Notes: generated by a model not told the origin, from the sequence alone. Shown: positions 6,628 to 35,280, counted from the first letter of the stretch. The stretch: 64,000 nucleotides of DNA from an uncultured Bacteroidia bacterium (GCA_902768985.1 CACXNA010000003.1:58675-122674); one strand, 5' to 3'. Numbers and translations: made by a program.

Positions 6628-6647
6628 CCGTCCGTCTCTTTTGACCG

Positions 6648-6692
6648 GTGGGCTAACCCCCCGGACCCCCTGCGTCGCAAAGCTCCGACCCA
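6648..6692 (-). repeat. G-module repeat copy (GTCGGAGC...GCGAC..AGGGGGT..CGGGG)
   Basis: The reverse complement aligns at about 75% by eye with 53303-53347. A partial third copy lies at 10276-10300. Confidence 0.4.
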
Positions 6693-6693
6693 C

Positions 6694-6718
6694 GTCATTC
6701 CGGGCTTGACCCGGAATC
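6694..6718 (-). repeat. 25-nt palindromic element P25, copy 1 (GTCATTCCGGGCTTGACCCGGAATC)
   Basis: It is the exact reverse complement of the copies at 20677-20701 and 32787-32811, with an internal 8-9 bp stem ATTCCGGG/CCCGGAAT. Confidence 0.85.
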
Positions 6719-6720
6719 CC

Positions 6721-6852
6721 AGACAGGTGTCCACGAAATCGCCATTCTACGCGTTATTTCTGGACACCTGTCGGCATTTTGGGCTGTTTTCGGCTGTTTT
6801 GCGTGGGAGGTGTCCACTTTTATTGCACCAGAGGCCGATTTTGTGGACACCT
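6721..6852 (+). repeat. Four-arm double-hairpin element, family DH-1, copy A (REP/REPIN-like)
   Basis: GGTGTCCAC/GTGGACACC arms at 6723-6734, 6761-6771, 6808-6817 and 6843-6852. It aligns in reverse orientation with 9906-10038. Confidence 0.8.
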
Positions 6853-6973
6853 ATTCGTCCCGGGATTCGCGCGGTTTTTCCGCCGGGCATTAAAATTTCA
6901 CAATTTCTTTCTTACAAATCTTACAAGCCCTTGGACTTCCCAAAATCTGTTTTCATCTTTACGGAAATAGATA

Positions 6974-7927
6974 ATGACTATGAAACAACTTTACCACTTC
7001 TGTATTACCTGTCACGAGGAGGTCCTGTTCCGGGACGACGAAGACATCCGCAACATCACCAACATCCTTGCGCTTGAAGCCTTCGGTAGCCAGGTTGAGC
7101 TTTGGGCGGACGCGATTATGTCCACCCACATCCACGGCATTGCATTCGGCGAAGCGGATGCGGTCATCCGCTTTTGCCGCACACTGAAGATGCGCATCAC
7201 CAAGTATCACCGCTACCGCCACCGGGGATCCGGCCCGCTGTTTGACGATGGTCACTTCCTACTACGCCTGGATGGCAACAACCATATCCTTGCGGCCGTC
7301 AGTTACGTTCTCCGGAACGGACTGCATCACGGGCAGAGTGCCACGCCATTCAGCTATCCCCATTGTTCGGCCAATCATTTATTCTGTAAAGAGCTCGGAA
7401 AGACGCCCCAGGAAGGCGTCATCACCTCCCGGCGGGACATCGCCCGGCACCTGCCGCGGCGCTCGGAGTTCCCGGACCACTTTGCGATGGACCGGAACGG
7501 GATGCTGGTCCGCCATTCTTTCGAACAACTGGCACGCGTGGAGCACTGCTACCGGACGCCACGCTGCTTCGAATATTATATGAGTCGCCTGTCCGGCGAG
7601 GAATGGCAGCGGGAGCAGCGGGAAGACGGCGTGGTGGATGCGCCGATCACACTCGAGTCGCTGGAACAGCCCAGCCAGTACGAGCCGATAGCGAAGATGC
7701 TCGCCAGCGAAAAGGGATACAACTATTCTCCCTCGCAGCGCTCGGATATGGATCTATGCCAAGTCATCGACAGAGAGTATGTCCGGAGTTATGGCAGGAT
7801 CTCCGTCTATCAGCTGACCGCCGAACAGCGGCGCCGAATCGCCGGCGACCTGGCCCGGCGCCTTCACGCCCCCGCCGCCCAGATTCTTCGCTGCCTGGCA
7901 CTGGCGGATCATCCCGCCGGATACTGA
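6974..7927 (+). CDS. HUH/Y1 (IS200-like, RAYT-like) transposase-like protein with a C-terminal HTH-like extension
   Basis: 317 aa with an HUH-like motif STHIHGI and a tyrosine motif AAVSYVLRNGL (Y-x-x-x-N, as in REP-associated tyrosine transposases). The C-terminus (LTAEQRRRIAGDLARRLHAPAAQILRCL) looks HTH-like. The gene is adjacent to hairpin element A. Confidence 0.7.
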   Translation: MTMKQLYHFCITCHEEVLFRDDEDIRNITNILALEAFGSQVELWADAIMSTHIHGIAFGEADAVIRFCRTLKMRITKYHRYRHRGSGPLFDDGHFLLRLDGNNHILAAVSYVLRNGLHHGQSATPFSYPHCSANHLFCKELGKTPQEGVITSRRDIARHLPRRSEFPDHFAMDRNGMLVRHSFEQLARVEHCYRTPRCFEYYMSRLSGEEWQREQREDGVVDAPITLESLEQPSQYEPIAKMLASEKGYNYSPSQRSDMDLCQVIDREYVRSYGRISVYQLTAEQRRRIAGDLARRLHAPAAQILRCLALADHPAGY

Positions 7928-8530
7928 TTATATCGCCAGGCCGAGGTGTAAGCCAATGGACGGACCGATAGTTGGGCCAAGGAAAAGATTTGACTTGCCC
8001 CATAGCCGGATGGAAAGCCCCGGTTCCCAGGAGAAGTACCATCTGCAAACTCCGGCCACTGGAGCACCGTCAATGATATATCCAAAAGCCTTATAGACAT
8101 ATGACCCTCCGACCATCAAGTCACTGTAGATAGAAAAGCGGCGTTTCCGGTCCAGCGGGATGTAATGCCGGTGATAAAGGAAGAAGTCTATGTTATATGC
8201 TTTGGCAGGATTGGCATCGTAAAACACCCAACTGTGTCCCAGGCCCAATCCAAACACCTTGTTGGGACTGGTTCGGATGCCTCCGGTCAGGGTTATCGAT
8301 TCATGGTAAATCATTCCCACGCCCCGCACGCTGAACTCCGGCTTCCAGTTCTTGCGACCCTCGGCCGACAAGTGCGACTTGACTTCCTCGAAATAGTCCT
8401 TGGCCACGAAATTGGGTGATTCGAAGTCCAGTTTATTGCCGACCACCGTGGACGTCGTGTCGACCTGCTGGGCGACGGCTGGGAAAAAAATCAGAAAAGC
8501 GGATAGTATCGTTATCAGGTATTTCATCAT
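7928..8530 (-). CDS. Hypothetical secreted protein, possible small outer-membrane beta-barrel
   Basis: Signal peptide MMKYLITILSAFLIFFPAVAQQ with alternating aromatic/glycine-rich segments. GC is noticeably lower and codons are often A/T-ending. Confidence 0.55.
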   Translation of the reverse strand: MMKYLITILSAFLIFFPAVAQQVDTTSTVVGNKLDFESPNFVAKDYFEEVKSHLSAEGRKNWKPEFSVRGVGMIYHESITLTGGIRTSPNKVFGLGLGHSWVFYDANPAKAYNIDFFLYHRHYIPLDRKRRFSIYSDLMVGGSYVYKAFGYIIDGAPVAGVCRWYFSWEPGLSIRLWGKSNLFLGPTIGPSIGLHLGLAI

Positions 8531-8532
8531 AC

Positions 8533-8976
8533 TTATTGTTTGTCGAACATGGAACGGAGGTCCTCCAGGGTGGCGGTGCCCTCCAGGTACAGGATGGTGA
8601 TGACCCAGGCGGGCCCGACCGGTCGGGCCTGGTAGCAGAGGTAGCGGTGGGTCTTGCCCCGCTGGGCGGGCTGGATCAGGGCGTAGGTCAGCAATTTCCC
8701 GATCACTTCCGTCTCGGCGGACACCGCCGCATCTGCGTCGGCTTTCACCAACGCAGCCACCTCCAGCGCCTCTTTCTCATCGACCTGGAACTGGACGCTG
8801 CGATAAAAATCCAGTTTGTACGTGGTCATGCTGCTGCCGCGGACTTCCGTCCGGATCATGCGGTCGGAGGAGATGACCCGCCCGCGAAAGATCGCGTTGC
8901 AGCTCAGGCCCCGCTGGGCAAAGGCCGCTCCGGAGGAAAGGAGCAGCGCCAGTATGCAAAGGAGTATCTTTTTCAT
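8533..8976 (-). CDS. Hypothetical secreted protein associated with the sigma/anti-sigma module
   Basis: Signal peptide MKKILLCILALLLSSGAAFAQ. It overlaps the upstream gene by 4 nt, which suggests an operon. Confidence 0.55.
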   Translation of the reverse strand: MKKILLCILALLLSSGAAFAQRGLSCNAIFRGRVISSDRMIRTEVRGSSMTTYKLDFYRSVQFQVDEKEALEVAALVKADADAAVSAETEVIGKLLTYALIQPAQRGKTHRYLCYQARPVGPAWVITILYLEGTATLEDLRSMFDKQ

Positions 8977-9389
8977 CGCCGGAACATTTCTATGAGGGTT
9001 GTTTCAGCGGGCGTTTCGCCCGCAAAAAAGTCCGCCAGCGAGGCATCCACAGACGCCATGATCTGCTCGCTGTCGGTAGAAGCCTCTCCGTAAGAATAAC
9101 GGACGCACACGTCGCGTTCCGCTCCCTTGAATCGGGGGAACAACCCGACGGAGAGAAGGATGACCAGGGCGGCCGCGACGGCGGCCCAGGAATACGCCCA
9201 GCGGGCGGGTGCCCGGCGGGACGTCTGCGCCCGGCCCAGGGACAGGTAGCCCAGCACGCCCCGCAGTTCTTCGAACGCGGGGTCGTCCGTGCGGGCGGCG
9301 TACCGGGCGAGCCGGCGCTCCTCGGCCGGCGTGGTCTCCGCCTCCCAGTAGCGCTGCATCAAGGCTGTATATTTCTCTTTATCTGTCAT
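8973..9389 (-). CDS. Putative anti-sigma factor (single-pass membrane protein)
   Basis: 138 aa with one TM helix (WAYSWAAVAAALVILLSVGLF). It overlaps the ECF sigma gene 3' end by 11 nt. Confidence 0.55.
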   Translation of the reverse strand: MTDKEKYTALMQRYWEAETTPAEERRLARYAARTDDPAFEELRGVLGYLSLGRAQTSRRAPARWAYSWAAVAAALVILLSVGLFPRFKGAERDVCVRYSYGEASTDSEQIMASVDASLADFFAGETPAETTLIEMFRR

Positions 9390-9858
9390 CTTTCAGTGTG
9401 TTTCTAAGTGTTTTGCGGGCGCGGGAGAGTTGCATCCTCACCGCGGCCGGCTCCATGCCGAGCTCCCGCGCTATTTCTTCCAGGGTTCGCCCGCCGTATT
9501 CCTTCTCTTCCAGGATGTATCGCTGCGTCTCCGTCAGTTCCGATTCGATCTTGCGATGCATGGCGGCGTAGGCTTTCTCCCTGTCTTCGACGTCGGGCGG
9601 CGCCTCCGCGACATCCGCTTCCAGCGGGACCAGGCGCCGTCGTCGCCGCTCATTCAGGCTGGCGTTCCGGACCGTCCGGGCCAGCAGGGCCTCGGCTTCC
9701 TGCTCGGACTGCAGCGGATACCGCTTTTGCCAAAGCCGCACGAAGCTGTCCTGCAGGATATCCTCGGCGCCGGTCGGATCGGGCAGCACGCGCACGGAGA
9801 TCCCCTTCAGCTTCTGCCGAAGCCTGATAAATGCATCAGTCAGGAAATCGTTTGCCAT
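9379..9858 (-). CDS. RNA polymerase ECF-type sigma-70 factor
   Basis: 159 aa with region 2 (EDILQDSFVRLWQKR, ARTVRNASLNERRRRR) and a region-4 HTH (GRTLEEIARELGMEPAAVRMQLSRARKTL). Confidence 0.85.
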   Translation of the reverse strand: MANDFLTDAFIRLRQKLKGISVRVLPDPTGAEDILQDSFVRLWQKRYPLQSEQEAEALLARTVRNASLNERRRRRLVPLEADVAEAPPDVEDREKAYAAMHRKIESELTETQRYILEEKEYGGRTLEEIARELGMEPAAVRMQLSRARKTLRNTLKDDR

Positions 9859-9885
9859 CCTACTCTATATAACACGGCCGCTACT

Positions 9886-9893
9886 CAAATGTA
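9886..9893 (-). promoter_or_regulatory. -7 box TACATTTG for the ECF sigma operon
   Basis: Exact TAnnTTTG on the minus strand, 27 nt upstream of the ATG at 9858 and 12 bp from repeat element B. Confidence 0.5.
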
Positions 9894-9905
9894 ACAACTA
9901 TTTTT

Positions 9906-10038
9906 GACAGGTGTCCACAAAATCGGCCTCTGGTGCAATAAAAGTGGATACCTCCCCTGGAAAATAGGCGAAATAGGCCAAAAATGCCGACAGGTGTCCA
10001 GAAATATTGCGTAGGATGGCGTTTTTGTGGACACCTGT
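9906..10038 (-). repeat. Four-arm double-hairpin element, family DH-1, copy B (inverted relative to A)
   Basis: Arms at 9909-9918, 9944-9953, 9990-10000 and 10027-10038. The reverse complement aligns with 6721-6852 at about 85% by eye. Confidence 0.8.
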
Positions 10039-10104
10039 CCGAAGAATACACCGCGCCCGCCGATGCGGGGGCTGTGCGGGGGCCTGAGCACGTTTGCCCG
10101 TGCG

Positions 10105-10231
10105 GTCGGGGGCCGTGCGAGGGGTGCGTGGGGGGCGGCGGGCGCTATAGGCTGGTGGCGGGAAGGCGGCAGGGTGCTGGCGGACGGGCATTTTGTTGCC
10201 CGGACGTCAGCAGCCCTGTCGCCTCCGCCGG
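10105..10231 (+). repeat. GC-rich structured repeat E125, copy 1
   Basis: It aligns with the reverse complement of 53092-53216 (GTCGGGGGCCGTGCG.GGGGTGCGT ... GGCAGGGTGCTGG..CAGCAGCCCTG). It contains a long imperfect hairpin at 10169-10218. Confidence 0.7.
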
Positions 10232-10240
10232 ATGGAAAAC

Positions 10241-10270
10241 GAGATTCGCCGGTCGGAGCCGGCGAATCTC
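10241..10270. repeat. Perfect 12-bp-stem hairpin GAGATTCGCCGG-TCGGAG-CCGGCGAATCTC
   Basis: The palindrome is visible directly. Its 3' arm shares 11 of 12 nt with the hairpin arm at 58938-58949. Confidence 0.6.
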
Positions 10271-10434
10271 GTACGGTAATACGTTCAGAGCGAAGCGAAG
10301 TCGGCACCAGCCGACCGGCCGGCCCCGGGTATTTGGCCAATTTGGCCAAATACGGAAAGGGGTTTATGGCCGCAAGGGGTTACAGGGGGCGGAGCCCCCT
10401 TCATGGATAGGTCTGGGGGGAACGCCCCCCAGTC

Positions 10435-20676: not shown

Positions 20677-20701
20677 GATTCCGGGTCAAGCCCGGAATGA
20701 C
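20677..20701 (+). repeat. 25-nt palindromic element P25, copy 2
   Basis: GATTCCGGGTCAAGCCCGGAATGAC is identical to copy 3. It overlaps the last four codons (SFRA) and the stop of the addA-like gene. Confidence 0.85.
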
Positions 20702-23487: not shown

Positions 23488-26306
23488 CGTCCGCAGATAT
23501 TTTTGAAGTCACACCATTCACAGGTCTTCGCATCCTCCGTCCGCGCGAAGGGGACGGCCGGGTCGGCGATCCGGGCGAGCAGGCCGTGGAGCCGCTCTTC
23601 CATCAGGGTCACAAACTGCCCGCCGACGGCCACGCTCTCCACTTCCTTGACGAAGAGGCGCGAGGGCTGGTAGATGGAATTGACGATCCGGTTCCCCCGC
23701 AGGGCGGCGTCGCCCGCGACGAAACGGTCGTACAGATAGAGCTGAAGCGCGATCTTGGGGCGCTTGGCGTTGTCGTCGCCGAAGAGCTTGTCCACCACTT
23801 CTTCGGCGTTGCTGTCGTTGATCAGGAAATCCTCGTCCGTGACCTTGCCGGTCTTGTAGTCCACCACGCGGACCTCGCCGGGACGCAGGCTGTCCAGTCG
23901 GTCGATATAGCCGACGAAGCGGAAGCCGTCGAACTCCATGTGCCGTTCCTGTTCCAGGCCGAGGATGCGGAAGCGCTCGCTGCCGGCCGCGGCGAGCAGC
24001 TCGATGTCGCGCTGGATGACCTTGCGGACATAGTGGCAGATCTGGTCTTCGAAGATGATGTTGCGCCCGCTCACCTCGAAGCTATGGAGCTTCTCGAGCA
24101 TGCGCTCGCGTACGGCATCCTTGATCCGGGTGCCCTCCAGCAGCGATTTCAGGTAGTCGCGGGAGACTTCCGGACGGTCGTAGAGCCGCTGCATCGTCTC
24201 GTGGAAGACGTTGCCGATGTCGTTCGCCTCCAGCGCCTCGGTCACTTCCTCCTGCTCCTTGAGCCCGCAGACGACCTTATAATAGAACTTTGCCGGGCAG
24301 GAAAGGTAATCCTGCAGGGAGGAGGCCGAGAGATGCTTGCTGCGGATCTTCTCGAGGTGCTCCGCCGTCTTGGCGATTTCGGGCGCCTCTTCCTGCCCCC
24401 GGGCGATGTCCGCGCGGAGCGTGAAACGCCGGATGTCGGCGTGGAAGTGCAGCTCCAGCTGCTTGATGTAGCGACTCTCTTCGCCGCCCCGCACGCCTTC
24501 GGTGCGGGAGTCGAAGAGCAGCCACACCTCGCCGGCGCGCTGGATCATGCGATAGAAGTAGTACGCCCAGACGGCGTCCTGGTATTCGTAGGTGGGCAGG
24601 CCGAAACCCTTGCGCAGCTCCGCCGGCACGAAGGAGGAGGCGACGCTGCGCCGCGGGAACATGCCCTCGTTGCAGCTCAGCACGATCAGTTTCTCGAAAT
24701 CGAGGGCGCGCGTCTCCAGCGGGCCCATCACCTGCAGGCCCTTCAGCGGCTCGCCCCGGAACGGGACCGCCGCCGCGCCGAGCAGCTTGCCCAGCAGGCG
24801 GAAATAGGTGGCGGGAAGGATATCCAATTTGCAGTCGCGCAGGCGCCCCACGGCGAGGTAGTACTCGCGGGCGAAATCCTGCTCCAGCGCCATGCCGGGC
24901 GCGTCCTTGAGCCGCGCGCCCAGCTCGCCGAGCAGCTCTTGCTGGTAGTCCTCCAGCGCGCGGACGACCGCTTCCCCGGCCACGCCGGGATCCCGGACCA
25001 CCGGCCGGAAAATGAGGTCGAAGAGCGGCAGGCCGTTCAATTCAGCCTGCGGGATATAGTAACGGGCGCCTTTGCGCACGGCGGCGGCTTTCTCGCGCCC
25101 CGCCTCGCCCGTCAGGGTCTTGAAAATGCTGTTGGAGAAGATGCTCCAGACCTGCCGGTGGTAGAAGTACCACTGCCCGTCCTTTTCGCGCAGATGCATC
25201 TGCAGGGCGGCCACGTCGTCCATCAGGGCGCTCAAGGCGCTGCCCGACATGGGGTAGCCCATGGTCACGTTGATGTCTTCGATGCGCTCCGGCAGGGAAT
25301 TCAGCACCGGGATCAACAGGCTCTCGTCCGGCAGGACGACGGCCGTCTCGATGCCGCCCGCGCCCATCCCGTCCAGGATGGCCGGGATCTGCTTGGCCTG
25401 GCCCACGCCCGAGGGGACGCTCAGGACGTTGATCTTCGGCTTGCCGAGGCCCTCCGGGTCGGGTTTGAAGGCCTGGGGGAATTCGGTGACGTTGTCTGCG
25501 AGGAACTTGGCGGACTTGTTGTGCGGATCGCGGATCCATTCGCTGCTGAAGTCCCAGCAGAACTCCGCCAGATGCGCCTTGTGCAGGCGGCGCATCAGCC
25601 GCTTCTCGCATTCGTTGAGGGCGTTCAGCCCGACGAAGACGAATTTCTTCACCTTCGGGAAACGCTCCGCCATCAGGTCCGCGGCGGACGTGTCCTGCAG
25701 GCGCTCGGCCAGCTCGCGGTAGACCTGGCCCTCCGTGGCCATGCACTTTTCGCGTAGCCGCGCGTGGAAATTGCGGTAGAGCGGCAGCAGCAGGTTCCAG
25801 ATGCGCCGGAAGGCGTCCTTGTATTCGCCGCCCGTGTGGAAATGCTTCAGGAACTGGCGGATGGCCGCTTCCTGCGTCTCGTCCAGGTAGTCGAAGCTGT
25901 CCTGGATGCTGCGGAAGTCGGCGATGTTGGTGAAGAGCTTCTCGGGATCGACGAGGTACTTGTCCACGTCGGCGAAGTCCGACAGCAGCACGCCGCCCCA
26001 GAAGATGAAGTTGTCGAGCGACTCCGCCTCCGCTCCGTCGCGCTCGTAGAGCGGCTTGTAGCAGTCGTAGAGCTCGAGCAGCAGGTGCACCTGGTCCGTC
26101 TGGCGGGCGTCCGCGAGGCGGTAGAAGAAGTCGTTCATCGTGTACAGGGCCGGCACGCGCATCGGCTTCTTCCGCCGGGCGACGCATTCGCCCAGGTACT
26201 TGCGGAAGAACGCCACCGCGCGCCGGTTCGGGAGGATGAAGCACAGGTCTTCAACCCCTCCGGCGGCCTCGTAGTGCCGCGCCACCTGATCGAGGAACGG
26301 AGTCAT
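23484..26306 (-). CDS. PD-(D/E)XK nuclease family protein (AddB-like partner)
   Basis: The start MTPFLDQVARHY lies at 26306. There is no intact Walker A (LPNRRA). It has the nuclease motif VRVVDYKTGK and terminal cysteines CEWCDFKNIC. The stop overlaps the addA-like start by 4 nt. Confidence 0.8.
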   Translation of the reverse strand: MTPFLDQVARHYEAAGGVEDLCFILPNRRAVAFFRKYLGECVARRKKPMRVPALYTMNDFFYRLADARQTDQVHLLLELYDCYKPLYERDGAEAESLDNFIFWGGVLLSDFADVDKYLVDPEKLFTNIADFRSIQDSFDYLDETQEAAIRQFLKHFHTGGEYKDAFRRIWNLLLPLYRNFHARLREKCMATEGQVYRELAERLQDTSAADLMAERFPKVKKFVFVGLNALNECEKRLMRRLHKAHLAEFCWDFSSEWIRDPHNKSAKFLADNVTEFPQAFKPDPEGLGKPKINVLSVPSGVGQAKQIPAILDGMGAGGIETAVVLPDESLLIPVLNSLPERIEDINVTMGYPMSGSALSALMDDVAALQMHLREKDGQWYFYHRQVWSIFSNSIFKTLTGEAGREKAAAVRKGARYYIPQAELNGLPLFDLIFRPVVRDPGVAGEAVVRALEDYQQELLGELGARLKDAPGMALEQDFAREYYLAVGRLRDCKLDILPATYFRLLGKLLGAAAVPFRGEPLKGLQVMGPLETRALDFEKLIVLSCNEGMFPRRSVASSFVPAELRKGFGLPTYEYQDAVWAYYFYRMIQRAGEVWLLFDSRTEGVRGGEESRYIKQLELHFHADIRRFTLRADIARGQEEAPEIAKTAEHLEKIRSKHLSASSLQDYLSCPAKFYYKVVCGLKEQEEVTEALEANDIGNVFHETMQRLYDRPEVSRDYLKSLLEGTRIKDAVRERMLEKLHSFEVSGRNIIFEDQICHYVRKVIQRDIELLAAAGSERFRILGLEQERHMEFDGFRFVGYIDRLDSLRPGEVRVVDYKTGKVTDEDFLINDSNAEEVVDKLFGDDNAKRPKIALQLYLYDRFVAGDAALRGNRIVNSIYQPSRLFVKEVESVAVGGQFVTLMEERLHGLLARIADPAVPFARTEDAKTCEWCDFKNICGR

Positions 26307-27676
26307 TATTCTTCTCCGAGGAACATCGGGTCCCAGGCGGGGAGGAGGATGGGCTTCTGTTCGAGCATCTTCAGGACGTCGGCGGGCACGAACTGCTTCT
26401 CCACCACGAGGCGGAACATGTATTCGTTGAACCACTCGTCAGTCATGATGATGTTGCCCTGGTAGCCGGAGGCGGCGCCCCAGCTGTTCTCCACCATCCA
26501 CTTCTGCGGAACCCCGTCCTTGAGGTCCACCGCGATGAGGGTCATCGCGTGGGAGGAGCCGCTCGCGTGCGTCATCACGCGCTCGCGCTTGTTCATGGAG
26601 AGATTGACGCCCAGCAGGGACTCGTAGTCGAAGTTGTTGAGGTCGGCCACGCCCTTGGTGCGGTCGAGGAACTTGTTCACGTCGCAGGAGAAGTACATGG
26701 CCTTGTTCGCCTTGATGGAGGCGATGGCCATCTCCTTGATGCGCTCGATGGGGAGGTTGACGTAGAGCCAGTTCTGGCCGTCGTAGAGGTGGCGGTCGTA
26801 CTGGATCTCATAGACCTTGCCGTACTCGCGGCAAGGGTCGTTCATCAGCATCACGTAGTTGTTCTCCAGGTCGTAGCCCAGCAGTTCCTGATAGAAGGAC
26901 TGCGGGGTGTAGGTCTTGCCCTTCCACTCGAACTCCGTCGGCGGGACGCCGAGGCAGAGGGCGAGGACGTGGTAGACCTCCTTGAGCATTTCGGTCTTCT
27001 GCTTCTCCAGGAAGGCCGGCAGGTCCTTCGCCTTGACGCCGGTGGGCGTCTGGCGCAGCTTCAGGCCGTCGCGGCGCAGCAGGGTCTTGATCTGGGTGGC
27101 CATGGCGGAGGTGTTATTCGCCGAAAGGCTTTCGGGCATCACGTTCGCGGGCACGACGCCGTATTTCATCACCAGGTTGGCTACGCCCGTGAAGGTGCCG
27201 CCGTCGCTGATGGGGTTGCTGAACAGCCAGTCGACCTCGCGGTCGTCGAAGGACTTGTCGCGGGTGTCGATGACCGCCTGCAGGAAGAGGTTCGCCTTCT
27301 CGAGCTGGTCGTAGAAGAAGTTGTAGTTCTGCGAGAAGCGGAAGTCGCCCAGGCCGTGCTTGTCGGCGGCCGCGGCGCGCAGGACGTTCAGGCCCGTGAA
27401 GAGCCAGCAGCGGCCGGAGGATTTCTGGTCGGTGATGCCCCAGGTCTTGACGCGGTCGGAGAATTCCGTGTCGATCATCGCGGCGTTCTCGGCATTGGCC
27501 GAGAGGACGGTGATGGAGGTGGTGTTCAGCGCGTTGCGGATGGCCTTGTCGGAGGAGGTGCCTTCATAGCCCCTGCGGATTTCGGAAATCATCTGCGGGG
27601 TGATGGCGCCTTTCGGCTGCGCGGCGGCACCGACGCTGAGCAGCGCCAGTGCGAGCAGGGAGAGAGTCTTCTTCAT
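26306..27676 (-). CDS. pepC: C1-family aminopeptidase (PepC / bleomycin hydrolase-like), secreted
   Basis: 456 aa with a signal peptide, the catalytic Cys context QKSSGRCWLF and the C-terminal His context SHAMTLIAVD...MVENSWG. Confidence 0.9.
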   Translation of the reverse strand: MKKTLSLLALALLSVGAAAQPKGAITPQMISEIRRGYEGTSSDKAIRNALNTTSITVLSANAENAAMIDTEFSDRVKTWGITDQKSSGRCWLFTGLNVLRAAAADKHGLGDFRFSQNYNFFYDQLEKANLFLQAVIDTRDKSFDDREVDWLFSNPISDGGTFTGVANLVMKYGVVPANVMPESLSANNTSAMATQIKTLLRRDGLKLRQTPTGVKAKDLPAFLEKQKTEMLKEVYHVLALCLGVPPTEFEWKGKTYTPQSFYQELLGYDLENNYVMLMNDPCREYGKVYEIQYDRHLYDGQNWLYVNLPIERIKEMAIASIKANKAMYFSCDVNKFLDRTKGVADLNNFDYESLLGVNLSMNKRERVMTHASGSSHAMTLIAVDLKDGVPQKWMVENSWGAASGYQGNIIMTDEWFNEYMFRLVVEKQFVPADVLKMLEQKPILLPAWDPMFLGEE

Positions 27677-29266: not shown

Positions 29267-29959
29267 TCAGAATTTGGGAGGGCAAAGGTAATCTTTTCCG
29301 ATTTCAATTACAAATTTTTCTGCAAAATATTCATCTTTCAGCCATTCATCGACCCGCCAAGTCCGGATTTTTCCGGGTTCGACCCGGCATTTTCGGGTCA
29401 GCTCGGAGATTTCCGCATTCACGTCGCCGCCCTTGAGATAGAGGATGCTGCGGCGGAATTTGCCCTTGACCCAGGGGTAGAAATTGTCCAGCGAGGTCAC
29501 CGCGCGGGAGACGACCCAGTCGAAGGGACCGGCCAGGCTCTCGGCGCGGGCGTTGATACAGGTCACGTTCTGCAGGCCGAGCCCGTCGGCGACCGCCTGC
29601 GCGACCTTGATCTTCTTGCCGATCGAATCGCAAAGCGTGAAATGAGCGGTCGGGAACTCGGTCGCAAGGGGGATGCCGGGAAAACCACCGCCCGTGCCCA
29701 GGTCCAGGATCTGGGCACCTGGGGCCTTCACCCCCTGCACCCCCTCAAGGGGGATGGCCGGATAATCGCTGTCGCGATCCGGCGCCCACGCACGATACTC
29801 GGCAGGATAGTACCGGCGCAAGTACTCGGCGATGGTGAGCGAATGGAGGATATGGTGCTCGTAGAGCGCGTCGATGTCCTTGCGGGACACGACGTTGATC
29901 CGCTCGTTCCATTCGCGGTAGAGCGCCACCATCGGAGCATATTCTGCGGCTGGTTTCAC
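29267..29959 (-). CDS. rsmG: 16S rRNA (guanine527-N7)-methyltransferase RsmG, with an insertion of about 30 aa
   Basis: It has a GTG start, NVVSRKDIDALYEHHILHSL and the SAM motif ILDLGTGGGFPGIPLA. Extra residues lie between these two motifs. Confidence 0.9.
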   Translation of the reverse strand: MKPAAEYAPMVALYREWNERINVVSRKDIDALYEHHILHSLTIAEYLRRYYPAEYRAWAPDRDSDYPAIPLEGVQGVKAPGAQILDLGTGGGFPGIPLATEFPTAHFTLCDSIGKKIKVAQAVADGLGLQNVTCINARAESLAGPFDWVVSRAVTSLDNFYPWVKGKFRRSILYLKGGDVNAEISELTRKCRVEPGKIRTWRVDEWLKDEYFAEKFVIEIGKDYLCPPKF

Positions 29960-32706: not shown

Positions 32707-35280
32707 GTGAATCTTTTGTCACGCATAGCGTTTCCCGTGGCCGTGACGGCTTTCGCCGCCACCGGGATTTTCGGACTCGGACAGGGGATTCCGGGTCAAG
32801 CCCGGAATGACTACCATGCAGCCGGGAATCCTTATGTGAATCCTGTGCAGGACACGGTCATCTATCCCGTGGCGGGGTACAAGCTGCGGCGCACGCTCTC
32901 GCTCGAGGAGATCACGGTGCGCGACACGTCCGGTTTCGAGGAGCTCGCGGACACGCTCGCCCTCGCCACCGACACGCTCCCCCCGCGCCTGAGCCCCCGC
33001 GACTCCCTCAAGGCCCTGCTGGACAGCACGATGTGGGACAAGCTCGACTCCATCTACCTCGCAGACTCCACGGCCAAGGCCAAGGCGGCCTTTGAGGCCT
33101 GGTACGCCGGACTCTCCAAAGCGGAACGCAAGAAATATGACACCGAGCAGCGTATCCAGCTGAAGATGGCACGGACTGACTCGCTGAAGAAAGCCAAGGA
33201 TGAACGCAAGAACATCCGCGACAGCATCGCAGAGACGACCCCGCGCATCCTCGAGACCTACGCGCTCCCGGATTCGCTCCACTACAAGCGCCTCGTCACC
33301 TGGACGCGCGACCCGGACTTCGGCAAGATGAACGCCGCCGTCCCCGACACCACCTACAACTTCCGCTTCCACGACTACGCCTTCCAGCGCAGCGACGTCA
33401 ACGCCACCTGGCTGGGCGTGGCCGGCTCGCCGGTCCAGCACTACAACTGGTTCCAGCGCAAGAGCGACGAAGGCGTGGAATTCTACGACGCGCAGGAGTC
33501 CTGGAGCTACTCGCACCGCACCCTGCCGCACTACAACACCAAGGTCCCCTACACCGAGCTCGCCTACTTCGGCACCCTCTTCGCCAAGTCGGCCAAGGAG
33601 TCGGACAACCTCCACCTCTTCACCACCCAGAACATCACCCCGGCTTTCAACTTCGCCCTGCTCTTCGACCGCTACGGCGGCGGGGGCATCCTGGACCGGG
33701 AAGAGACCGTCAACAAGACGGGCGTCGTGCAGGCCAACTACCTGGGCAAGCGCTACACCCTGCACGCCGGCTACATCTACAACATGGTCCGGCGCCAGGA
33801 GAACGGCGGCATGCGCGACATCGGCATGATCCGGGACACGACCGTGGACTCCCGCGACATCCGGATCAACCTCCTGAACGCCCAGTCCAAGATCAAGAAG
33901 AACACCGTCTTCCTCGACCAGCAGCTGCGCATCCCGTTCACCTTCATCGAGCGGCTGCGCGCCCGCCGCGACAGCACCTACGAGTATGACCCCGAGGGGC
34001 TCAACCGCGACATCACGACGGCCTTCATCGGCCACAGTTCCGAATTCTCCACCTACACCCGCATGTATACCGACGCCATCAACGACGAGTTCGGCGCCGC
34101 CCTGTACAACAACGTCTTCCGCTACGGGCAGTCGAGCGCCGACTCGCTGCGCGTGATGCGCCTGGACAACAAGGTCTACCTCCGGCTGCAGCCGTGGTCC
34201 AGCGAGGGCGTGGTCTCCCGCCTCGACGTGGGCGTGGGCGACTACCTCAAGCACTACTACGACAGCTCCGCCGTGCGCCCGCTCAAGCACGTCGAGAACT
34301 CCTTCTACGTCTACGCCGGTGCGGAGGGACAGATGTTCAAGACGGCCTGGTGGGACGCCAAGGCGCGCTTCGTCGTGCTCGGCCACGACGCCGGCGACTT
34401 CGGCGTGGAGGCCAACGCCGGCTTCCGCTTCTTCCCCTTCCGACGCGCCCGCAAGAGCCCGATCAGCGTGAGCGCCCATTTCGAGACCACGCTGGAGAAT
34501 CCGACGTACTACCAGCAGCACATCAACCTCAACCACTACATTTGGGACAACGCCTTCAGCAAGATCTCCACGACCCGCATCCAGGGCCGCCTGGACATCC
34601 CCTACTGGCGCATGTCGGCCGACGTGGGCTACGCCCTGCTGGCCGGCAACCTCTACTACGGCACGGACGGCGTCATCCGGCAGAACAGCACCGCCATGAG
34701 CGTGCTTTCCGCGCAGCTGCGCAAGGAATTCAAGATCGGCCCCGTGCACCTCGACCACCGGGCGCTCCTGCAGTTCTCCTCCAATTCGGATGTCCTGCCG
34801 CTGCCCCTGGCCGCCTTCAATTTCCGCTACTACGTCGAGTTCGTGGTGCAGCGCAACGAGCAGCGCCAGAACGTCATGACCATGCAGATAGGCGCGGACG
34901 CCTATTACAATACGCCCTGGCATTCCCCTGCCTGGAATCCCAACCTGGGCGTCTTCCACAACCAGACCGACCGGCTCTACACCAACGGCCCCTGGTTCGA
35001 CGTGTTCGTCAACGTGCAGTGGAAGCGCGCCTGTGTCTTCATCAAGTACCAGAACGCCGGCGTGGGCTGGCCCCTGCTGCATCCTGACTACTTCAGCGCC
35101 GACCGTTACATCATCACGCAAAACGGCATGGACGGCCTGAAGTTCGGTGTGTTCTGGCCCTTCTACACCCAGCCCCGCAACAGGAGCGCCTCCTCCTCGT
35201 CGTCGGGCAGGGCTTCCCAATCCGGCAGCAACCCGGCCGGAGGCGGGAACCGACCCAATCTCAGATCCAACTCCCGATGA
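32707..35280 (+). CDS. Large outer-membrane protein of the Bacteroidota 'putative porin' type
   Basis: About 857 aa from the GTG at 32707 (TTG 32716 is an alternative) with a signal-like N-terminus. The aromatic-rich beta-strand pattern continues to the C-terminus and ends in a Ser/Gly-rich tail. The start codon is uncertain. Confidence 0.65.
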   Translation: MNLLSRIAFPVAVTAFAATGIFGLGQGIPGQARNDYHAAGNPYVNPVQDTVIYPVAGYKLRRTLSLEEITVRDTSGFEELADTLALATDTLPPRLSPRDSLKALLDSTMWDKLDSIYLADSTAKAKAAFEAWYAGLSKAERKKYDTEQRIQLKMARTDSLKKAKDERKNIRDSIAETTPRILETYALPDSLHYKRLVTWTRDPDFGKMNAAVPDTTYNFRFHDYAFQRSDVNATWLGVAGSPVQHYNWFQRKSDEGVEFYDAQESWSYSHRTLPHYNTKVPYTELAYFGTLFAKSAKESDNLHLFTTQNITPAFNFALLFDRYGGGGILDREETVNKTGVVQANYLGKRYTLHAGYIYNMVRRQENGGMRDIGMIRDTTVDSRDIRINLLNAQSKIKKNTVFLDQQLRIPFTFIERLRARRDSTYEYDPEGLNRDITTAFIGHSSEFSTYTRMYTDAINDEFGAALYNNVFRYGQSSADSLRVMRLDNKVYLRLQPWSSEGVVSRLDVGVGDYLKHYYDSSAVRPLKHVENSFYVYAGAEGQMFKTAWWDAKARFVVLGHDAGDFGVEANAGFRFFPFRRARKSPISVSAHFETTLENPTYYQQHINLNHYIWDNAFSKISTTRIQGRLDIPYWRMSADVGYALLAGNLYYGTDGVIRQNSTAMSVLSAQLRKEFKIGPVHLDHRALLQFSSNSDVLPLPLAAFNFRYYVEFVVQRNEQRQNVMTMQIGADAYYNTPWHSPAWNPNLGVFHNQTDRLYTNGPWFDVFVNVQWKRACVFIKYQNAGVGWPLLHPDYFSADRYIITQNGMDGLKFGVFWPFYTQPRNRSASSSSSGRASQSGSNPAGGGNRPNLRSNSR
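32787..32811 (+). repeat. 25-nt palindromic element P25, copy 3 (inside the porin CDS, encodes IPGQARND)
   Basis: It is identical to copy 2 and lies in frame in the N-terminal region of the porin ORF. Confidence 0.85.

Follow-up and report, generated by a model that had tools for sequence, protein, structure and literature searches.

The 64,000-nt stretch of DNA analyzed here (GCA_902768985.1 CACXNA010000003.1:58675-122674, from an uncultured Bacteroidia bacterium), which as a whole is called the window, carries in the spacer between a cmk-like gene and pta two inverted copies, A and B, of a hairpin-rich element. Between these copies lie a gene for a protein resembling the tyrosine transposases associated with repetitive extragenic palindromes (REPs), known as RAYTs, and, on the other strand, an operon headed by a gene for an extracytoplasmic function (ECF) sigma factor. 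The arrangement raises the question of whether the elements bound a cassette, mobile or invertible and with the operon as its cargo, or are repeats served by the gene beside them. An earlier interpretation made from the DNA sequence without database searches (the sequence-only reading) had proposed such a cassette or, alternatively, two independent insertions of REPIN-like type. From sequence comparisons and a predicted protein model it is now probable that A and B are non-autonomous, REPIN-like double-hairpin copies, that the adjoining gene encodes their cognate single-stranded DNA (ssDNA) endonuclease/ligase, and that together they form a REPtron-like unit around a resident operon.

Hairpin elements and the adjoining RAYT-like gene

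A repeat search, with which MAFFT agrees, identified an inverted repeat of 131 nt (6722-6852 and 9909-10039) that is 89% complementary, with 3056 nt between its arms, so that the two inverted elements of the sequence-only reading are real. Both elements are 134 nt long once their true ends are taken from aligned copies (Table 1). A pair of 45-nt hairpin modules, AGGTGTCCA-N27-TGGACACCT, makes up each element, with exactly 83 nt from the start of one module to the start of the other. In 25 to 34 aligned copies the doublet borders are GAC immediately before AGGTGTCCA and GTC immediately after TGGACACCT; the inner border of A is degenerate, with ATT for GTC. The 13-mer GACAGGTGTCCAC, allowing up to two mismatches, occurs seven times in the 64-kb window, every time within A or B, as compared with 1.2 occurrences expected from shuffles, and none of 100 shuffles reached seven. 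The four arms of each element are arranged + - + -, and the 9-mer GGCTGTTTT is present twice in tandem in the spacer of A, both as initially described. No further copy or fragment of the element was found in the window outside A and B, and no family was matched when Rfam was searched with the elements.

It had also been suggested that each element could fold either as two hairpins or as one alternative hairpin, and both forms were recovered by folding the elements as ssDNA. The minimum-free-energy fold is one long hairpin for B (-31.3 kcal/mol, z -6.75) and two local hairpins for A (-29.5 kcal/mol, z -5.9); z-scores across the elements folded range from -5.3 to -6.75. The reverse complement of module b matches module a at about 73% identity.

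The gene beside A encodes a protein of 317 aa. It belongs to a family whose members, ∼308 aa long, can be aligned over their full length at identities as low as 38%. The residues H52-I-H54 (in STHxH) and Y111, R114 and N115 (in SYVLRNGLHHG) are invariant in 27 homologues (38-90% identity). Y111-x3-N115 corresponds to a catalytic Tyr with a polar residue four positions on, the arrangement which, together with HUH, characterizes RAYT/TnpA-REP proteins. Many positions are also conserved across the 27 members in the C-terminal ∼170 aa. The NCBIfam model REP_Tyr_transpos (NF047646) aligned with residues 4-131 of the window protein (E 3e-7, 30.4 bits) and matched 13 of the 27 members, all under its cut-off. 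Pfam Y1_Tnp (PF01797) did not match the window protein, and Pfam and PDB sequence searches with the protein and with the family profile gave nothing useful.

An AF2 model built on the family alignment had high confidence (predicted local distance difference test score, pLDDT, 90.7; predicted template modeling score, pTM, 0.90). In this model the N-terminal ∼150 aa adopt a predicted Y1 transposase fold, and Foldseek ranks 4er8_A (E 1.5e-5, TMt 0.69) first, ahead of IS608, ISDra2 and IS200 TnpA. The 4ER8 structure is that of E. coli TnpA-REP (RAYT) bound to a REP hairpin (Messing 2012, via PMC6006769). With this best structural match and the invariant HUH and Tyr, the original call of a RAYT-like gene is upheld. 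The C-terminal 167 aa modeled alone reached a pLDDT of 56 and had no Foldseek match. The final 9 codons of the window gene depart from the usual ...RCLAL end of the family because the operon abuts the gene there. As part of the reading given at the outset, the 317-aa protein probably belongs to the RAYT/TnpA-REP branch of HUH-Y1 proteins, within which it is deeply divergent and carries an additional domain at the C terminus.

When 1.84 billion representatives were searched with the family profile, 185 proteins (clusters at 50% identity) reached E≤1e-30 and 854 reached E≤1e-10; no family members were found in IMG/VR viral contigs. A distant RAYT-like paralogue (∼41% identity) was observed in three loci with cmk-like proteins that are 78-83% identical. 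It lies 6 kb past cmk in L135 (14148-15071) and L142 (13976-14896), and 4.6 kb past cmk on the opposite strand in L144 (7700-8620). Several protein sub-lineages therefore coexist in this genome group.

Every homologue examined with enough flanking sequence (38-97% identity) has modules of this kind beside its gene, and flanking doublets were seen in the window and in L003, L049, L080, L019/L063, L128, L129, L148 and L160. A homologue with 74% identity (P0006; loci L003-L006) lies in another gene neighborhood and is tightly flanked by two direct ∼138-nt copies of the element. Arms of different sequence accompany the more divergent proteins: AGGTGAACA with an 84-nt phase at 53% identity (L125), TGTCAACACGGC with an 83-nt phase at 42% identity (L126, two modules upstream and five downstream), and AGAGGTGTGGAAAGA with a 73-nt phase at 38% identity (L122), the last within 300-nt direct repeats that are 99% identical. 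Across lineages the modules are 45-nt long-loop hairpins with a phase of 73-84 nt, and between clades the arms differ while the palindrome is kept. This joint shift of protein and arm sequence is the best evidence for a putative cognate enzyme-hairpin pair.

Dispersed doublets were sought by a pattern search in one genome per species, which is permissive and yields many chance matches, and per-genome copy numbers are lower bounds. Complete 134-nt doublets were seen at many loci in metagenome-assembled genomes (MAGs) of rumen Bacteroidales. The MAG RGIG9685, a close relative, has no fewer than 12 of them, spread over 10 contigs, and a single locus with the gene, a ratio of solo doublets to gene of at least 10:1, and five other MAGs contain at least 2-5 doublets each, in keeping with the prediction of multi-copy, REPIN-like repeats. 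The copies are extragenic, situated between open reading frames (ORFs), and in 26 copies the flanks are unrelated, the ends sharp and target-site duplications absent. Nearly all of 25 canonical copies are a+b+ with a spacing of exactly 83 nt. Such uniform 134-nt copies in unrelated flanks suggest that doublets replicate as a unit.

Two other kinds of repeat were observed next to the elements. A short REP-like palindrome family (consensus approximately GTCATTCCGGGCTTGACCCGGAATCTC) has four copies in the window (6697-6717, 20678-20698, 29370-29390 and 32788-32808) as against 0.05 expected; the first of these is ATTCCGGGCTTGACCCGGAAT. Other copies lie in L001 (1661-1679), L052 (5949-5967) and L129 (980-998 and 2996-3014). 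Palindromes of this type adjoin doublet ends at A in the window, in L052 and at both ends in L129, and one marks an empty site in L001 (site Z, below). They could serve the doublets as an insertion target, or could form a separate REP family that has an enzyme of its own. The sequence just beyond B is repeated too. It comprises a GC-rich segment of ∼140 nt and a terminator-like hairpin ACGAGATTCGCCGG...CCGGCGAATCTCGT (window 10040-10272), and it recurs, inverted, on both sides of the RGIG9685 unit (L049 2559-2624 and 4205-4307) and with a solo doublet in L046 (4264-4405). This suggests longer composite repeat variants that may also be substrates for nested inversions.

Multi-copy hairpin repeats with the core AGGTGTCCA-N25-29-TGGACACCT and lineage-specific stem extensions were also observed in other phyla. 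These were found in Chloroflexia MAGs (L020, L023, L028, L078, L087, L089 and L117), one Chloroflexota MAG (L016, L064, L066, L104, L107 and L120), Massilia/Telluria (L027, L032, L058, L081, L098, L109, L110 and L113) and Poribacteria (L037, L092, L103 and L119). One Chloroflexia loop is similar to the Bacteroidales a-loop. Since the scan pattern fixed the arms, this set is subject to selection bias. A Candidatus Saccharibacteria MAG contig (L007 1-1100) carries a 223-aa RAYT-like ORF (195-866) with an NHFH motif and a weak match to the family profile (E 6e-6). This ORF is flanked by at least six mini-palindromes GTCAGGTGTCCAACACCTGAC, which have the core CAGGTGTCCA as in the Bacteroidales arms. 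Contigs that bear the gene often start and stop inside the flanking elements, including a Logan contig of 3113 nt (L002) and many homologue contigs of 1.2-3 kb; because of the repeats, short-read assemblies are systematically broken at this locus.

Alleles in the cmk-pta spacer and at other sites

A metagenome scan with the cmk-like protein identified 40 loci, among which all four presence/absence combinations of the operon and of the gene-plus-elements unit were found in the cmk-pta spacer. Neither is present in L130 (88% nt identity), in which a 90-nt spacer replaces window 6637-10409. The operon is present without the unit in L131 (79-89% nt identity), which keeps window 7928-9852 only, and in L149 (97% identity), which is without A and the RAYT-like gene; in both, the boundaries and orientation of the operon are as in the window. 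Gene and elements are present without the operon in L049, from RGIG9685. This contig is collinear with the window from MatE to ackA, window 7903-9905 with the whole sigma operon is missing from it, and 16 nt separate the stop codon of the gene from element B. Both are present, in the same arrangement, in the window, L001 and L148. Because the operon and the gene-plus-elements unit are present or absent independently at this site, the operon, as judged from these alignments, is a resident of the cmk-pta spacer and the repeat system an independent occupant, with the operon not its cargo. This is close to the alternative that the sequence-only reading had offered, namely independent REPIN-like insertions around resident genes.

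The features of the window are listed in Table 1. Earlier gene calls of an ECF sigma factor and DUF6108 inside the interval, and of Cytidylate_kin2 and PTA_PTB (pta) genes on its flanks, were confirmed with Pfam. The -7 box that had been placed 12 bp from B is present, as a consensus match; the region of the expected -33 box falls inside B, and L131 keeps the same promoter stretch without the element. A lower GC content had been claimed for 6.9-8.5 kb, and this was borne out in part. GC at third codon positions (GC3) is lower inside the interval, at 0.73 for the RAYT-like gene, 0.64 for the gene of the 200-aa protein and 0.75-0.82 for the other operon genes as compared with 0.83-0.93 for the flanking genes, but dips in GC content are limited to 6.6-7.2 kb and 8.0-8.6 kb.

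Table 1. Coordinates of the elements, genes and sites discussed, in window numbering.
Feature	Position	Strand	Remarks
21-nt palindrome ATTCCGGGCTTGACCCGGAAT	6697-6717	.	second small REP-like family; 4 nt outside A
Element A	6722-6855	-	134-nt double-hairpin element, REPIN-like; true ends from aligned copies
Modules of element A	b 6725-6769, a 6808-6852	-	a to b on the minus strand
RAYT-like HUH/Y1 gene	6974-7927	+	317 aa; adjoins A
Four-gene operon	7928-9858	-	between RAYT-like gene and B
Signal-peptide protein gene	7928-8530	-	200 aa; without family match
DUF6108 gene	8533-8976	-	family match
Putative anti-sigma gene	8973-9389	-	without family match
ECF sigma gene	9379-9858	-	Pfam
Bacteroidota -7 box TACATTTG	9886-9893	-	consensus match only; upstream of the sigma gene, 12 nt from B
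Element B	9906-10039	+	element of A in opposite orientation; 134 nt
Modules of element B	a 9909-9953, b 9992-10036	+	
Empty junction of site X	26303-26308	.	PDDEXK_1 start codon abuts stop codon of next gene

Other contigs carry further rearrangements of the spacer. L129 has lost window 8528-9885 and carries, on its cmk side, an inverted piece of the pta-side spacer. Between the gene and a copy of B, L160 has another, different small ECF sigma operon, and after this copy of B a 3′ fragment of the gene occurs for a second time; the products of this operon (L160 1580-3049) are a membrane protein of 149 aa, an ECF sigma factor of 162 aa and an anti-sigma-like protein of 102 aa. The B elements of L148 and L165 share 97% identity with A of the window, which suggests gene conversion, and after them comes a duplicate, 159 nt long, of the 3′ end of cmk. 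On the basis of these comparisons the locus is unusually prone to rearrangement between strains, a recombination hotspot.

One contig, L127 (95% nt identity), carries the interval in inverted orientation. Its order is cmk, element, sigma (+), anti-sigma, DUF6108, the gene of the 200-aa protein and remnants of the RAYT-like gene (-), with two internal deletions. The element in L127 consists of the outer flank of A, an A-type b-module and an A-type spacer, and then continues into the inner flank of B, with the crossover in module a, a stretch of ∼50 nt that is identical between A and B. Exchange within the longest identical stretch is as homologous recombination predicts. In L003, L019/L063 and L122 the flanking elements are direct repeats, and the interval therefore cannot invert in those lineages; no tyrosine or serine recombinase gene was found near the interval. 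Since the repeats are direct elsewhere, no recombinase is nearby and the crossover falls in the longest identical stretch, the inversion is read as a probable by-product of the repeats and not as a designed switch. An exact look-up of the sigma protein provided no more contigs informative on orientation.

The gene-plus-elements unit was located at three chromosomal sites. Site X, beside PDDEXK_1/UvrD genes, is occupied in the genome of L003 and in Candidatus Cryptobacteroides MAG_197 (L019 and L063, 87-93% nt identity), and the window is uninterrupted at 26305/26306, exactly where these two relatives hold the RAYT-like gene and its flanking elements. The window, L049 and L148 have the unit at site Y, the cmk-pta spacer. 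Site Z, which has an acetyl-CoA hydrolase gene on one side and a DUF2807 gene on the other, holds a copy of the gene in L080 and L128, a remnant in L142 and a solo doublet in L135, and is empty in L001, which encodes the exact window protein. Two paralogues are present in L128, one at site Z and one in the cmk-pta spacer. The occurrence of the unit at three sites is compatible with its mobility, and also with loss followed by re-acquisition by recombination. At site X in MAG_197 (L019 4400-8000 and L063 1-343), 3.9 kb lie between the RAYT-like gene and the distal doublet. This stretch has a GC content of 42-50% within surroundings of 60-65%, contains no ORF longer than 115 aa, and had no match in Rfam or among plasmids.

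Proposed mechanism and competing explanations

If A and B are REPIN-like doublets with the adjoining protein as their enzyme, the protein would bind the modules when these are folded on single-stranded DNA, for instance at replication forks, and would cut at the hairpin feet to copy or move doublets. In the lineage of the window, the unit surrounds the resident ECF sigma operon in the cmk-pta spacer. Since A and B form an inverted repeat of 131 nt that includes an identical stretch of ∼50 nt, homologous recombination between them could flip or delete the interval, and many strain-level alleles would result. Several observations weigh against this reading. Only two copies, A and B, are present in the 64 kb of the window, and the doublet copy numbers of relatives are lower bounds. 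The NF047646 score of 30.4 bits is far under the cut-off of 80, and Pfam Y1_Tnp matches one of the 27 family members, at an E-value of 0.097. The hairpins have unusual conserved 27-nt loops, and the canonical guide GTAG (GT[AG]G) is absent, the hairpin feet being GAC or GGGGG before AGGTGTCCA. Covariation over 34 copies fits neither fold better than the other and neither fold beats shuffles; the arms are near-invariant within the clade, and because they barely vary, within-clade covariation is uninformative. Inversion is known from one 4.5-kb metagenomic contig (L127), in which an assembly error is possible.

Among the alternatives, the element-gene-element arrangement could be an autonomous insertion sequence (IS) of the IS200/IS605 kind that moves whole, with doublets as its ends and solo doublets as derivatives resembling miniature inverted-repeat transposable elements (MITEs). 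We consider this unlikely. It would account for a unit at three sites in otherwise collinear relatives, with empty junctions in the window (26305/26306), L130 and L001, for the two paralogues of L128, for the lack of target-site duplications, and for a gene region that is 86.6% identical between the window and L049 where the flanking genes are 93-96% identical. However, genomes have one or two diverged copies of the gene and never many identical ones, and solo doublets far outnumber it in RGIG9685. Both ends are the same element, inverted or direct, whereas IS200/IS605 ends are distinct and strand-specific; MAG_197 has 45-57 nt extra outside the elements relative to the empty junction; and recombination with imported DNA could equally relocate the unit. 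It is also quite doubtful that the unit is an active, self-mobilizing REPtron that moves whole, in which the slot between the 3′ end of the gene and the distal doublet repeatedly captures or exchanges ECF sigma/anti-sigma operons. If true, whole-unit movement together with the shuffling of host regulatory genes would have been demonstrated for a RAYT-family element for the first time, and the hairpin core CAGGTGTCCA would be common to repeats in Chloroflexota, Poribacteria, Betaproteobacteria and Saccharibacteria.

Of the cassette envisaged by the sequence-only reading, inversion is documented in one contig, and the cargo proposal failed because operon and unit are independent. A transposable unit bounded by the inverted elements, with the sigma/anti-sigma operon as cargo, would be consistent with the position of the operon exactly between the RAYT-like stop codon and B, with the lower GC3 within the interval, with the different ECF sigma/anti-sigma operon in the same slot in L160 and with the 3.9 kb between gene and distal element in MAG_197. 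Such a cassette is largely refuted and highly improbable, given the operon in the cmk-pta spacer without element or gene in L131 and L149 and gene plus elements without the operon in L049; a second A-to-B unit at another site was not found. A programmed switch, with A and B as site-specific inversion sites that re-orient operon and gene relative to neighboring transcription, is very unlikely. Both orientations do exist in nature (the window, L001 and L148 versus L127), and in the flipped state the sigma operon runs in the direction of MatE and cmk, and the RAYT-like gene in that of ackA-pta. Yet one of about seven informative contigs is flipped, its RAYT-like gene is degraded by the two deletions, and the sigma promoter lies inside the segment, so that inversion leaves it coupled to the operon; the direct repeats in other lineages, the position of the crossover and the lack of a nearby recombinase gene also argue against a switch. 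It is barely credible that the repeats are independent of the gene, as host structural or regulatory palindromes (terminators or protein-binding sites) or as MITEs of an unrelated transposase. Extragenic copies, some of them adjoining the second short palindrome family, and same-core arms in other phyla could be seen in this light, but every member examined (38-97% identity) is flanked by the repeats and the arms co-vary with protein lineage. Target-site duplications are lacking, contrary to DDE-type MITEs, and the unrelated Saccharibacteria RAYT-like ORF is also flanked by CAGGTGTCCA-core palindromes. Integron attC sites and DDE-type MITEs were considered as identities for the repeats and rejected, since neither an integrase nor a target-site duplication is present and the repeats are consistently tied to the HUH gene.

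Relation to described systems and significance

The system most readily compared with the proposed doublet-enzyme pair is the REPtron of E. coli, consisting of TnpA-REP and REP or bacterial interspersed mosaic elements (BIMEs) (Ton-Hoang 2012, Messing 2012 via PMC6006769). Both have a one-copy HUH-Y1 gene, flanking palindromes that are also dispersed extragenically, and HUH and Y-x3-N motifs, and 4ER8 is the best structural match of the protein described here. The repeats beside the gene belong to a family whose dispersal was seen in the genomes of relatives; of the window genome, 64 kb were examined. Unlike its E. coli counterpart, the protein is about twice as long, with the conserved C-terminal ∼170 aa, has no Pfam Y1_Tnp match and has a replacement (LF) of the conserved W, and the repeats have 45-nt modules with conserved 27-nt loops, no GTAG foot and a fixed 83-nt pairing. 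The REPIN-RAYT systems of Pseudomonas and Enterobacteria (Bertels & Rainey 2011, PMC3116915; Bertels 2017, PMC5581495) share the doublet of two inverted related modules, which can form one long hairpin of ∼130 nt here as well, the non-autonomous nature of the doublets and the single-copy gene. In contrast to those systems, the copy number here is apparently tens (a lower bound) and not hundreds, each module is itself a hairpin, hence the two alternative folds, the hosts are Bacteroidales, and the protein clade is different.

The sequence-only reading had matched the arrangement, with its enclosed cargo genes, to nothing described in a Bacteroidota-type genome. A lack of comparable systems in Bacteroidota is not supported, in view of TnpA-Y1 subclasses 2.4 and 2.6, which occur in Bacteroidetes and have at their flanks unusual secondary structures of which further copies lie at other places in the genome (Quentin et al. 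2018, PMC6006769). Subclass 2.6, equivalent to Bertels group 5, has a median length of 179 aa and the motifs NH[LIV]H / WQ / YIH[QN]NP (Table 1 of PMC6006769). The family described here shares Bacteroidota hosts with both subclasses but belongs to neither, by motifs, length and the absent Pfam match; as compared with subclass 2.6, its proteins are ∼308 aa long and have STH[IL]H / LF / SYVLRNG. The core-domain set of Quentin et al. was defined by two profiles, PF01797 and a TnpAREP-like profile (PMC6006769), of which PF01797 misses this family. TIRtrons with their TIRYT proteins (Di Nocera et al. 2013, PMC3733652; approximately subclass 2.1) are similar in having a Y1 protein with a C-terminal extension and long inverted repeats that flank the gene, some of which are self-complementary or double-palindromic and some of which form moderately abundant dimer families. 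They differ in that the TIRYT motif GGGGWSAS is absent here and the flanking repeats here are sometimes direct. Subclass 2.1 also has NH[VYF]H / Y[IV]xLNP motifs and Bac_DnaA_C/HTH tails, whereas no such Pfam domain was detected in the protein described here. With IS200/IS605 elements (IS608, ISDra2) the unit shares the Y1 fold, hairpin-bearing ends, the lack of target-site duplication and presence or absence at several sites, but multiple identical copies, distinct left and right ends (LE/RE) and tnpB are absent and solo doublets dominate. The bounded unit with cargo at more than one site that would typify a composite or cargo transposon was not found, operon and repeats varying independently. 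On sequence grounds, the protein is filed as a remote relative, not a member, of any described RAYT subclass, with a presumed REPtron-like way of working.

Understanding of REP/RAYT systems is drawn almost wholly from Proteobacteria, where the gene is taken to be a domesticated one that does not move. The system described here is set apart by a distinct protein clade with a predicted extra domain, which is invisible to Pfam Y1_Tnp, and by a different hairpin architecture. It is set apart too by population-level evidence that the unit may change its chromosomal site, and by repeats that appear to drive inversion, deletion and duplication around host genes. As a practical matter, these repeats break metagenome assemblies at the locus, and many contigs end within them. 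Taken together, the abundant rumen and gut Bacteroidales may offer a tractable natural system for the study of how HUH proteins recognize long-loop hairpins and of the mobility of supposedly domesticated RAYTs.

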